A stretch of DNA of 64,000 nucleotides. Origin: Octopus vulgaris (Eukaryota). A program made the translations under genes and the position numbers. The stretch spans positions 18,786,001 through 18,850,000 of the forward strand of contig OX597829.1 in NCBI GenBank assembly GCA_951406725.2, in the 5' to 3' direction. Below the pieces are notes generated by a model. That model did not search any database. It was not told the DNA's origin and worked only from the letters and a program-made list of their open reading frames with translations. Position 1 is the stretch's first letter, and every line of letters starts with the position of its first letter. This document shows, in pieces, positions 3,231 through 57,965 of this stretch.

Positions 3231-3444
3231 TATATTGTTATAAATATTGTGGGCTTAGCTGTGTGGTTACTTTGTTTAAACTGAATCTTACTGCTAGACT
3301 CTTCCTAACCTTGAAACCACTGGTGCCATCCCGTACACATTGTTTTCTTTCACATAATATATATGAGAGTATACCATGTAGGCTAGCTTACAGTATAAAT
3401 ACAATAGTGTGTGATTTAAAAGACATTTAGTTACTATTTTAATA

Positions 3445-4007: not shown

Positions 4008-4008
4008 A

Positions 4009-4402
4009 CTAGCAGTATCGCCCGGCGTTGCTCGGGTTTGTAAGGGAAATAATTATATAAGCATTTTTAGAGATGTAAAGTATAATAGCCATCTCAATAT
4101 GGCTAACCACAAAGGGGGAGGGGTGTTACTGTAGCTTTTTACGTTCTGAGATTTAATAATAAATTTTAGAGAGTTACTTCCCTTATATATGTCAAAAATG
4201 GATTAAAAATGGGAAAAATTGATGGTAATTTTTTTTTAAATCGTAGACTCATCGTAGACGCGCGCTAATACCCAGACGGTCTCGATATGAATCACGACTA
4301 TAAGATACCCGGTTTTGGTTAAACTGCACCGCAAAATGTGGGAGTAGTTAGGAATCTAAATCGTAGGAGACAGACACACAACCTCACTTTTATATATAAA
4401 GA
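4009..4402 (-). mobile_element. Non-autonomous Helitron
   Basis: Minus strand begins A|TCTTTATATATAAAAG, ends CCCGAGCAACGCCGGG hairpin then ATACTGCTAG|T; A/T insertion site, no TSD. Confidence 0.85.
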
Positions 4403-4502
4403 TTTCCTCTATTTACATAATATTGAGGTCTCTTTCTTTCTTTTGTTATCTTACTGTTTTTACCAATATACATATATATATATATATAAATATATATATA
4501 GT

Positions 4503-4823
4503 TACAGAGATGTACTTGCATAGCAAGTGACTTGATCTGAGATCGTGTGCTGGAACGAAAACAGTTGCAGCGTTGAAGGTGTTTATAAGCCATTTAAGAA
4601 ACACACAAAAACCGTTAGATTCACTTCAACATTTAAATTAAATTTGTCAAAATATTTTCGTCGCTTTGAGACCGCGACCTGTTAGCATGATATTTTTGTC
4701 AGTGAACAGGTCGCGGTCTCAAAGCGACGAAAATATTTTGGCAAATTAAATTTAAATGTTGAAGTGAATGTAACGGTTTTTGTGTGTTTCTTAAATGGCT
4801 TACAAACACCTTCCACGCTGCAA
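4503..4823. mobile_element. Penelope/retrozyme-like short repeat in inverted arrangement (~118-bp arms 4565-4683 and 4705-4823)
   Basis: Near-perfect inverted arms; same family at 52628-53086; carries hammerhead-like motif. Confidence 0.7.
4695..4745 (+). ncRNA. Putative minimal type I hammerhead ribozyme, G3-C8 core variant
   Basis: Stem I TTTGTCA/TGGCAAA, core GTGAACA, extra G, stem II GTCGC/GCGAC, GAAA, palindromic AATATT stem III, predicted UUU cleavage triplet. Confidence 0.6.
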
Positions 4824-5180
4824 TATATATATACACACATATATATATATGTATGTATGTATGTATGTGTGTATATGTGTATGCATATATGTGTGTGTGT
4901 GTGCGTGTGTGTCTAACTCCACCACTGCTTGACAACGAATGTTGGTTTGTTTACATCCCTGTCACCTAGTGGTTTGACAAAGGAAACAGATAGAATAAGT
5001 ACAATGCTTACACAAATAAAACTGGAGTTGATTCATTAAACTACAATTCTTCAAGGCATTGCCCCAGCATGGCCACAGACCAATGGCTGGAAAAAGCAGA
5101 AGAATAAAAGAATACATTCTCTGCTTTGGTCATATGTTGAAGGCATGAGAAAGCTTGAGTTTACATGAGAAGGCCTAACA

Positions 5181-5553
5181 GACCTGGTAGAAACAGCAGC
5201 CAAATCTCCCTCAAATCACACCTTACTGTCTTATGTATGTATATATATATGAGCCAATGAGGGGGACCTCTACATGGTAGCTAGACCTGGTAGAAATAGC
5301 AGCCAAATTTCCCCCAAATCACACCTTACTGTCTTATCTATGTATATATGAATGTATGAGCCTATGAGGGAGACCCCTACATGGCAGCTAGACCTGGTAG
5401 AAATAGCAGCCAAATTTCCCCCAAATCACACCTTACTGTCTTATCTATGTATATATGTATGTATGAGCCTATGAGGGAGACCCCTACATGGCAGCTAGAC
5501 ATGGTAGAAATAGCAGCCAAATCTCCCTCAAATCACACCTTACTGTCTTATCT
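5181..5553. repeat. Minisatellite, 3.5 units of 103-107 bp
   Basis: GAC(C/A)TGGTAGAAA(C/T)AGCAGCCAAAT recurs at 5181, 5284, 5391, 5498. Confidence 0.9.
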
Positions 5554-5569
5554 TTCTGCTACTTGGATA

Positions 5570-6053
5570 TAGGTGTTATATTCGTCGTAAAAAAACTTTC
5601 CTGTCACACACTCACGCACACGCACACACACACACACACACGCACCCTCACACAAACACACACGCGCACACCCACACACACACATGCACGTTAGCTTACA
5701 ATTTTATTTATATATTTGCGTGTCTGTGTGGAAAGAGGAAGTGGGAGGCAGAGTGAAAGAATCACTCACTACAGTAAGTCAAGTACTTTCATTTTATTCG
5801 TTGCCCACTGTGTGTGTGCGTTTGCGTGTGCTGTAAACCAGACTAAGAAAAGCATTTGACACACACACCAGAATGTGAGTTTTCTGTAAATTTTGCTTAA
5901 CTGGAGTTTAAATTTTAAAAACTGGACCTGGCATGACGCGATGCATTGTACTCTTAAAAATGCAAGGTAAATTGTAATTGAAGAAATCCTATATTGTAGA
6001 TTTGTATAACTCCCAAAGGGAGGCAGATAAAATCTGCCTTTTATAATAAGAGA
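5570..6053 (-). mobile_element. Probable Helitron-like element, 5' portion
   Basis: Minus strand begins ATCTCTTATTATAAAAG like the other Helitrons; no clear CTAG 3' end, so left boundary uncertain. Confidence 0.4.
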
Positions 6054-21874: not shown

Positions 21875-22280
21875 GGCGCAGGAGTGGCTGTGTGGTAAGT
21901 AGCTTGCTAACCAACCACATTGGTTGCGGGTTCAGTCCCACTGCGTGGCATCTTGGGCAAGTGTCTTCTGCTATAGCCCCAGGCCGACCAATGCCTTGTG
22001 AGTGGATTTGGTAGATGGAAACTGAAAGAAGCCTGTCGTATATATGTATGTATATATATATATATATGTGTGTATGTATTTGAGTGTCTGTCTTTGTCCC
22101 CCTAGCATTGCTTGACAACCGATGGTGGTGTGTTTACATCCCCGTTACTTGGCGGTTCGGCAAAAGAGACCGATAGGATAAGTACTGGGCTTACAAAGAA
22201 TAAGTTCTGCGGTCGACTTGCTTGACTAAAGGCGGTGCTCCAGCATGGCTGCAGTCAAATGACTGAAACAAGTAAAAGAG
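21875..22280 (+). mobile_element. SINE family A, full length, inserted in a TTAA MITE (21820-22375)
   Basis: Complete head to GTAAAAGAG tail; MITE halves on both sides. Confidence 0.9.
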
Positions 22281-22378
22281 TATTGTTTTAAATTAATCAT
22301 GGATTGCATCTAATCAGTTTGAACTTAAAACAGGTTGAATATTTGGGCTGGATATGGCTGGTTTAAATACTTAAAGAA

Positions 22379-22410
<32 letters not shown>

Positions 22411-22420
22411 AATATATATA

Positions 22421-22750
22421 CTCTTTTACTTGTTTCAGTCATTTGACTGCGGCCATGCTGGAGCACCGCCTTTAGTCAAGCAAGTCGACCGCAGAACTTA
22501 TTCTTTGTAAGCCCAGTACTTATCCTATCGGTCTCTATTGCCGAACCGCCAAGTAACGGGGATGTAAACACACCACCATCGGTTGTCAAGCAATGCTAGG
22601 GGGACAAAGACAGACACTCAAATACATACACACACATATATATATATATACATACATATATACTACGACAGGCTTCTTTCAGTTTCCGTCTACCAAATCC
22701 ACTCACAAGGCATTGGTCGGCCCGGGGCTATAGCAGAAGACACTTGCCCA

Positions 22751-51936: not shown

Positions 51937-52627
51937 AATCTGAGGCTGCTGAAACAACAACAACAACAACGCCACCTCCACCACCATCAGTAACAATAAT
52001 ACAATTTTAATGATGTCCTGCTTAAGTATATCATTCCCAATATTCTATCCTCCAATCTCTGTCCCACTCACCATCACCACCACCACCACATTCCTGATGA
52101 TGGAGGTGGTGGTGGTGGTGATACTGGTGATGGGGGTGATGGTGATTGGTGGTTGGGTGGTGGGAGAAGCAAAGGTATAGATGCAGTGATCTGCAGAGTA
52201 AATATAGGACATGGTAAAAAGTCTGATTCCTCCAACCTCATTGTTCTGGATTCAGTCCCACATGGAGGAACTTAGGCTGGTGTCTTCTGCTATAGCCTCT
52301 GGCTAACCAAAGCTTTGAGTGAATTTGGTACATGGAAACTGAAAGAAGCCTGCCACACACACATGTTAAATGATTAATTTGGAAGATGTGATGTAACCAT
52401 CTTGCTTCACTGTCTTTCATATCCATCATTCAAAATATACCCTACGTGCACTTCAGAATTCTGGACGTAGATCCAGCAACAAACACGCAGGTGGTGGTGC
52501 TGCCAGGTAGCTGTAAGTGGTGAATGTACCCTGCAAGCACACTACCTGGGACTTACCCTGAAACAAGGTTTGGATACTGCATTTAACACCTACTTTCCTT
52601 AATTCTAAATTTAGCTTTTATATATTA

Positions 52628-53086
52628 TAGAGATGTACTTGCATAGCAAGTGATCTGATCTGAGATTGTGTGCTGAAACGAAAACAATTGCAGCATGGAA
52701 GGTGTTTATAAGCCATTTAAGAAACACACAAAAACCGTTAGATTCACTTCAACATTTAAATTTAATTTGCCAAAATATTTTCGTTGCTTTGAGACCACGA
52801 CCTGATCACTGACAAAATTCCGTACTGCATCCATAGGATTCAAGATCTGTTATATATATTATGGAGATGTACTTGCATAGCAAGTGACTTCATCTGAGAT
52901 AGTATGCTGAAACAAGAACTGTTAGTTTCATTTCAACATTTAAATTTAATTTGTGTCAAAATCTTTTTGTTGCTTTGAAACCACAGACTGTTCACTGATA
53001 AAAATATTAAATTTAAATGTTGAAGTGAAATTAACAGTTTTTGTGTGTTCTTAAATGGCTTACAAACATCTTCCTTGCTGCAATTG
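52628..53086 (-). mobile_element. G3-C8 hammerhead family: ~225-bp monomer, second deleted tandem monomer and an inverted arm
   Basis: GAGATGTACTTGCATAGCAAGTGA at ~52630 and ~52864; inverted arm 53007-53086; same family as 4503-4823. Confidence 0.75.
52766..52816 (-). ncRNA. Putative hammerhead, G3-C8 variant (GTGATCA core)
   Basis: TTTGTCA GTGATCA G GTCGT GGTCTCAAA GCAAC GAAA ATATTT TGGCAAA. Confidence 0.55.
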
Positions 53087-57487: not shown

Positions 57488-57965
57488 CCTTTCATCCTTT
57501 CGGGGTCGATAAATTAAGTACCAGTTACGCACTGGGGTCGATATAATTGACTTAATCCTTTTGTCAGTCCTTGTTTGTCCCCTCTGTGTTTAGCATCTTG
57601 TGGGCAATAAAGAAATAAGAATTTGAACTCAGAATGTAAAGACAGATGAAATACCTATTTCTTTACTACCCACAAGGGGCTAAACACAGAGGGGACAAAC
57701 AAGGACAGACAAACGGATTAAGTTGATTACATCAACCCCAGTGCGTAACTGGTACTTTATTTATCAACCCCGGAAGAATGAAAGGCAAAGTTGACCATGG
57801 CGGAATTTGAACTCAGAATGTAACAGCAGACGAAATACAGCTACGCATTTCGCCCGGGGTGCTAACCTTTCTGCCAGCTCGCTGATACCTTAGATACTTA
57901 TTTTATTGACTCCAACAGGATGAAAAGTAAAGTCAACCTTGGTGAGAGTTGAACTCAGAACATAA
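57488..57965. mobile_element. SINE family B cluster: + fragment then - copies forming an inverted pair
   Basis: 57488-57605 is the reverse complement of ~57668-57786. Confidence 0.8.

Follow-up and report, generated by a model that had tools for sequence, protein, structure and literature searches.

We analyzed a 64,000-nt stretch of the Octopus vulgaris genome (contig OX597829.1, positions 18,786,001 to 18,850,000 of the forward strand; hereafter, the window) that contains a minimal type I hammerhead motif at 4695-4745 (+), located by motif scan and supported by covariation with sister families, in which the pair between core positions 3 and 8 is G-C instead of the C-G of the CUGANGA consensus. 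The motif is the hammerhead of the pseudo-long terminal repeat (pLTR) of an autonomous Penelope-like retrotransposon family with a G-C 3-8 pair. Judging from the sequences, we lean toward the view that the family's motif still self-cleaves, slowly and after U17, when two copies meet, and that the palindromic copy in the window is a dead insertion.

Stem I of the window motif pairs TTTGTCA (4695-4701) with TGGCAAA (4739-4745) over 7 bp, including one G-U pair that is A-U in the other arm of the palindrome surrounding the motif. The core, GTGAACA, occupies 4702-4708 (G3, 4702; C8, 4707; A9, 4708) and is followed by an extra G at 4709. Stem II (4710-4714/4724-4728) consists of GTCGC/GCGAC around a 9-nt loop, GAAA lies at 4729-4732, and U16.1 and U17 are at 4737 and 4738, respectively, with the predicted cut 3' of 4738. 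The 10-nt sequence AAAATATTTT (4730-4739) spans the stem III region, and the stem III sequence AAUAUU is self-complementary. The motif has the layout of a three-way junction with stems I and II, and the core letters U4, G5, A6, A9, G12, A13, and A14, the A15.1-U16.1 pair, and H17 are all present; the literal C3 and G8 of the consensus are absent. A preliminary description of this DNA had proposed the G3-C8 exchange with a 7-bp stem I, which we confirmed, and a cut after 4738, which is supported as a prediction. When both strands of the window were scanned for motifs with stems I and II and a Watson-Crick 3-8 pair of whatever kind, only this motif and one at 52766-52816 (-) were found. The latter belongs to a stand-alone 200-nt copy of the pLTR plus tail (52627-52829, -). 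Its core, GTGATCA, differs at N7 (U), as had been noted, and its stem II is weakened by a C-A mismatch and a U-G pair, which had gone unmentioned.

The preliminary description had also inferred a multi-copy family and suggested a genome-wide count; the count bore out the inference. In the 2.8 Gb searched, the G3-C8 motif with its loop left free gave 7,022 matches, compared with 4 in the control, and several subfamilies that differ in loop II all keep the pair. When the loop was fixed to that seen in the window, the exact G3-C8 core gave 1,251 matches (control, 0). With positions 3 and 8 free, there were 1,389 matches, of which 1,251 were G3-C8, 135 had single changes, 3 had double changes, and none was C3-G8. 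Because 135 single and 3 double changes are what neutral decay of dead copies is expected to yield, the copies alone show no selection.

The parent element was found by a search with the N-terminus of the open reading frame (ORF) of a canonical sister element, followed by inspection of 20 diverged matches. It consists of a pLTR, an ORF of ~1,050 codons encoding a reverse transcriptase (RT) and a GIY-YIG endonuclease (EN), and a second pLTR, with the G3-C8 motif in both repeats, ~4.26 kb apart, and the ATG ~90 nt 3' of G3. At locus L191 the pLTRs (1-821 and 4278-5082) are direct, 97.9% identical, and both G3-C8; the motif is followed by MAYKHLPRCNCFRFSTRSQIKLLAMRVHLRNSESLS, the RT and GIY-YIG region, and the second direct pLTR copy. 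Loci L192, L196, and L197 agree with this layout. The ORF of L191 is disrupted by a stop codon and frameshifts, and L197 has an open frame of 1,025 codons that is 5'-truncated. The GIY-YIG domain of the parent passes the Pfam cut-off (E 1.6e-5); Pfam RVT_1 gave no match to the RT, which was assigned from motifs and similarity only and has a long stretch between motifs A and B. The linker motif CX2-5CxxC precedes GIY-YIG (CQSNCAVC in L197). A single ORF with RT and C-terminal GIY-YIG, the hallmark of EN+ Penelope-like elements (PLEs), was found in L191, L192, L196, and L197. The parent may be Nematis-like.

Two other routes to the parent were abandoned. A hypothetical upstream extension bearing terminal inverted repeats had 0 matches, the true upstream sequence coming from the parent. 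NepA, an active Neptune-like family with a 784-aa ORF (L094), was rejected because the unit lies near only 2 of 30 copies (a third being a 31-nt partial match), and because NepA has its own 3' end and a long separate branch in the quick tree. NepA (L094:4194-6545 and L096-L125) is itself a young element with RVT_1 and GIY-YIG matches and copies that are 95-99% alike. No hammerhead was found in its 3' region by a strict any-pair scan, and its tail ends in ACATCTCC, resembling the tail of the G3-C8 family. As to expression, no listed holder of the sequence was on record as RNA, and 20 of 24 runs (five organisms) contain at least half of the query words. Contigs of four runs (three guessed to be RNA, one DNA) span the ORF as well as the pLTR; none of the joints shown is a splice joint at the AG site described below, and the contigs offer no ends that could be used. 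They give no evidence either way.

Canonical CUGANGA (C3-G8) motifs of like build numbered 1,894 genome-wide, compared with 18 in the control. They lie behind a GIY-YIG ORF, with intact 1,312-codon frames whose ATG is just 3' of the motif, and their downstream sequence aligns with the G3-C8 unit. A profile of the canonical 3' parts, ribozyme excluded, scored 43 of 44 G3-C8 copies at 3.1-11.6 bits (best of 500 shuffles, 2.3); it was built from 26 of 30 such parts, L127, L134, L150, and L151 being omitted as short, foreign, or repeat-filled. Between the G3-C8 and C3-G8 elements, the RT-EN regions share 54% identity, and in a quick tree the two form one clade with a Shimodaira-Hasegawa-like approximate likelihood ratio test (SH-aLRT) value of 100. 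An O. vulgaris protein (P0002) is almost identical to the C3-G8 sister ORF. A third homologous family, mostly U3-A8, gave 4,878 matches; at its first 30 loci the pair was U-A in 27, C-A in 2, and an unrelated G-C in 1. In the U3-A8 family (L195, L202, L206, L231-L260), stem I is 3 bp long and stem III, AAUU, has no loop. Watson-Crick 3-8 pairs of the kinds C-G, U-A, and G-C are therefore found in three homologous families, and because the sisters carry C3-G8 and mostly U3-A8, the G3-C8 swap is natural covariation. Six loci of metagenomic relatives were also found, and the four that were scanned downstream of the ORF yielded one hammerhead (L263, C3-G8). Since L263 lies outside the G3-C8/C3-G8 clade, G-C is likely the derived state.

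In an alignment of 11 motifs, made without the U3-A8 and outgroup rows (which MAFFT misaligned), 94.7% of the cells pair, compared with 45% in the best slid control. Four of the 12 pairs change on both sides, namely 3-8 (7 C-G, 4 G-C) and a single pair in each of the three stems. U4, G5, A6, G10.1, C11.1, G12 to A15.1, and U16.1 are invariant. U17 is shared with the C-G and U-A relatives and so probably predates the swap. It fits a G3-C8 core in that C17 would be expected to pair with G3; a G3-C8 variant has been described as less active with C17 than with G17 (PMC3884650, data not shown there). The youngest C3-G8 subfamily (L181, L182, L188, the G000:C15:42997083 region, and others) has many intact ORFs of 1,310-1,312 codons and, in half of the motifs located, an A9C core; its sequences point to an element that is apparently active and a hammerhead that is probably impaired.

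Stand-alone insertions of the G3-C8 family are ~200 nt long, and many have (TA)n after them. Among 66 such loci there are 35 head-to-head arrangements, whose junctions vary, and in 30 of these a long arm (to ~+200) is joined to a short arm (to ~+145); none has two long arms. Twenty-nine of the 66 loci had been chosen for one full arm, and the unbiased subset gives 9 of 10 long plus short. As in PLEs, copies are inverted and 5'-truncated, with a tail at one end. A nearby direct copy was present at 2 of the 66 loci, the others being solo or head-to-head, and the head-to-tail 150-400-nt tandems of retrozymes were not seen. The 5' ends are sharp: 66 of 105 segments begin at, or a few bases from, a single AG/ATG site 21 nt 5' of G3, and only 4 extend further upstream. 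Of the 21 AG starts, 12 show a G in place of the T or C found in the parent (p=1e-4), an extra base that suggests cap copying and a capped start. The start, AG/ATGCAGC (L191:4860-4890 and ~60 short copies), fits a capped initiator or a splice acceptor; CTAAC, pyrimidines, and AG precede it, as in a 3' splice acceptor, and no splice joint was seen. In Anolis, the Poseidon element PAc uses both strands of the target for priming, and its reverse transcription begins at two internal sites (PMC11167929). In the octopus family, RT would start internally at ~+145 or ~+200 and copy to the 5' end of the RNA, producing thousands of 200-nt copies, and if both strands of the target were primed, a long and a short complementary DNA would be joined head-to-head into a palindrome. 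The palindrome in the window was afterward multiplied as part of a ~2-kb Helitron that had probably captured it.

For cleavage to occur, two motifs, in one read-through RNA (4.26 kb apart) or in two RNAs, would pair through AAUAUU to build stem III, a pairing that has been proposed for PLE hammerheads (PMC4209133, PMC6765202). Alternatively, the element and its origin are the same and the motif no longer cuts: the fold may be kept for protein binding, RNA dimerization, RT positioning, or translation start, or the core may have drifted under relaxed selection, the swap then retaining pairing for structural reasons only. This explanation is doubtful, yet it must be taken seriously, as several observations speak against a cleaving motif. 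First, 7,640 copies read through the cut site and 48 (<1%) appear to start there, with 21 and 26 starts at offsets +1 and -1 and 20 and 40 at +3 and -3. The raw excess over +1 and -1 (p=4e-4) shrinks to 31 vs. 21 and 26 (p=0.14) after removal of 17 matches that end in stem-I microhomology letters. Copies born by cleavage were consequently rejected, there being no clear excess of starts at the predicted cut. Forty-one palindromes have their center near the cut site; in 4 of them an arm starts precisely at it, and most are joined at short self-complementary words. The 66 segments that start ~21 nt 5' of G3 were, by that position, copied from uncut RNA. Second, 12 of the 24 cores located at 30 C3-G8 sister loci read CUGAUGC, with A9 replaced by C, including copies on intact ORFs of the young subfamily. 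Third, the modeled double-hammerhead dimer (-25.4 kcal/mol) gains only 0.6 over two monomers (-24.8 kcal/mol) and is less stable than a stem-II-swapped duplex (-30.4 kcal/mol), and a G3-U17 wobble can extend stem I (-13.7 vs. -12.4 kcal/mol). By the triplet rule, UUU is also an unfavorable cleavage site. Fourth, PAc hammerhead mutants still insert in vitro, so that cleavage is dispensable there (PMC11167929), and minimal PLE hammerheads cut poorly in vitro (PMC4209133). Finally, since the motifs are related sequences, their covariation amounts to about one event per pair and yields no probability.

Against the loss of cleavage, two transversions exactly preserved a Watson-Crick pair with the other core letters unchanged, and the core was kept while the RT diverged by 46% and loops and stems were rewritten. 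Moreover, no subfamily with a broken pair was amplified, the 135 single and 3 double changes among 1,389 matches being all that was found. The double change C3G/G8C partly restores a PLE hammerhead (PMC11167929). Slow cleavage after U17 on the meeting of two copies is accordingly the reading we prefer for the family, although not for the copy in the window.

The preliminary description had placed the motif in a ~260-bp palindrome. The inverted repeat is real (arms 4565-4684/4705-4823, 91.5% identity over 260 bp); its extent required correction, the left arm reaching ~60 nt further, to 4502. Since that arm ends inside its own core, without G3-A6, only one arm has a complete ribozyme. The short arm (4685-4823, +) is a Penelope-like insertion running from ~17 nt 5' of G3 to the short 3' end of the family; its ORF start ATG is at 4795, and the frame is interrupted at 4823, where (TA)n follows. 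The long arm (4502-4684, -) is a pLTR truncated within the ribozyme core that extends to the end of the tail. Its ATG at 4593 encodes MAYKHLQRCNCFRSSTRSQIKSLAMQVHLCN, the N-terminus of the parent ORF, and the ~60-nt tail (4502-4564, -), present in one arm only, is therefore the start of that ORF, comprising its first codons. RNA of the palindrome folds at -195.2 kcal/mol (z -30; 0 of 200 shuffles equally stable), and the pairing probability of the hammerhead stems is 0.00 in it, compared with 0.70-1.00 in the pLTR context of L191. Because read-through RNA collapses into one long hairpin, pairing of two motifs through AAUAUU is not possible in the palindrome. It is a head-to-head Penelope insertion of the usual kind, in which the stems of the ribozyme are hidden. 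The earlier suggestion that it, or a local tandem, supplies the dimer fails on the head-to-head arms, the missing G3-A6, and the zero stem probability. A third, decayed head-to-head copy, at 52864-53083 (strand not assigned), has a different junction and the same short 3' end. The window holds further long inverted repeats of dispersed repeat copies at 57519-57754 and 22035-22666 (in one case with 249-nt arms that are 98% complementary and separated by 134 nt).

Each of the 40 best-scoring matches to 4505-4823 shows at least 99% identity across the full 319 bp, as would be expected if the palindrome were itself a functional unit, either a foldback DNA transposon or a retrozyme-like dimer with cooperating arms. 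We consider this very unlikely. All 30 of the best matches, which were fetched, share ~2 kb of flank with Helitron ends, so the carrier moved and not the palindrome, and a foldback element or miniature inverted-repeat transposable element was ruled out on the same ground. Stand-alone palindromes each have a different junction. In the palindrome in the window, the core is missing from the left arm and the stems are locked away in the hairpin. Helitrons have a 5' TC and a 3' hairpin followed by CTAG, and insert between A and T. The carrier, a young non-autonomous Helitron-like element at 4008-6052 (-), has its 5' TC at 6052 and its hairpin and CTAG at 4008, and was inserted between A and T with no target duplication seen. 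Of 42 rows, 41 contain its CTAG end and 27 its TC end, always next to the expected base; one locus is counted twice. The carrier holds 12 of the first 30 core matches listed, corresponding by proportion to ~500 carrier copies. The carrier is composite: an older short Helitron lies at 4008-4402, with its own TC end near 4402 and free copies (79-84%) in L016 and L075. The new 5' end is 1.65 kb away, and the carrier captured the palindrome, a short interspersed element (SINE)-like piece (~4855-5012), and a 107-bp tandem of variable number (5180-5553). Finally, a chance look-alike within a repeat, for which one might cite the lack of a hammerhead among the 150 of 158 Rfam matches listed at E<=1, is refuted by colinear homology to canonical pLTR hammerheads, the motif lying at the same place, before the ORF start, as the CUGANGA hammerheads of homologous elements.

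The motif shares with the minimal type I hammerheads of PLEs (Cervera and de la Pena, 2014; PMC4209133) its pLTR site, the extra nucleotide between A9 and G10.1, G10.1-C11.1, a short palindromic stem III, and mostly solo copies and opposite-strand pairs, and a U3-A8 variant is described there; it differs from them in the G3-C8 core, the 7-bp stem I, U17, and the sharp 5' start ~21 nt before G3. As in PAc (PMC11167929), the ORF starts in the pLTR, there are two 3' ends, the tail is the first codons, targets are AT-rich, and copies come from uncut RNA. The two differ in that PAc is C3-G8, with G3-C8 only engineered, whereas the octopus family is G3-C8 naturally; in the ATG, which is at stem II in PAc and ~90 nt after G3 in octopus; and in the tail (30-40 nt vs. 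~55-60 nt). The linker zinc-finger motif is present in the octopus family. Neptune and Nematis PLEs with a C-terminal EN (PMC8557442) have the same order of RT, CX2-5CxxC linker, and GIY-YIG; they likewise insert at (TA)n, leave copies that are inverted and truncated at the 5' end, and carry a tail at one end. Within the same genome, the G3-C8 family is far from NepA, a typical Neptune-like family. The RT of the G3-C8 family has no RVT_1 match and a long stretch between motifs A and B. Like natural U3-A8 hammerheads (Perreault et al., 2011, PMC3088659; also PMC4209133) and the G3-C8 cores reported as engineered mutants (PMC11167929, PMC3884650), the octopus family shows a compensatory 3-8 change; unlike these, it reverses the purine-pyrimidine order naturally and in thousands of copies. 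Non-LTR retrozymes (PMC7229834; bioRxiv 10.64898/2026.07.22.740005) likewise consist of short repeats that hold a type I hammerhead, do not code for protein, and are related to the pLTRs of PLEs, but the octopus copies are not head-to-tail, do not start at the cut site, and are direct pieces of an autonomous element. With non-autonomous Helitrons the carrier shares both ends, the insertion between A and T, and captured DNA.

No natural G3-C8 hammerhead was found in the literature searched on hammerhead variants, octopus, and PLEs, a scope that did not extend to Lunse et al. (2017) or Przybilski and Hammann (2007). None is reported in the available portions of PMC7229834, PMC8557442 (with a term search of its supplement), PMC13725137, and bioRxiv 10.64898/2026.07.22.740005, or in those of PMC4209133 with two-thirds of its supplement files, and the available text of the octopus repeat annotation (PMC13282606) does not mention hammerheads or ribozymes. 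Priority is uncertain, as Lunse et al. (2017) is a large survey of such variants. We propose only tentatively that this is the first natural, active G3-C8 hammerhead, that one Penelope-like clade sampled C-G, U-A, and G-C, each amplified to thousands, and that a GUGANCA class has been missed by CUGANGA descriptors. If so, that class possibly includes elements now described as hammerhead-free.

With C-G and U-A sisters alongside it in one genome and its parent identified, the natural G3-C8 family offers a set that is ready for comparative work. The C3-G8 pair is known from the structure of the full-length hammerhead, and the 3-8 pair has previously been probed by engineered swaps. Given a conserved core and inserted copies made from uncut RNA, it becomes a testable question whether Penelope hammerheads persist for the sake of cleavage or of something else. 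CUGANGA searches overlook >7,000 motifs in this genome, so hammerhead tallies, and reports that an element has no hammerhead, may have to be redone with all 3-8 pairs.

A lone GUGACCA core (L211/L253; G000:C1:12071841-12071869, minus) has stem II GUUGC/GCAAC, no stem I, and unrelated flanks; it may be a chance core or a decayed further family. Elsewhere in the window, a weak Rfam match to Vault RNA at 3247-3340 (+) scored 31.1 bits, under the gathering score of 34, and positions 1-979 consist of about four head-to-tail copies of a 260-bp SINE-like repeat.
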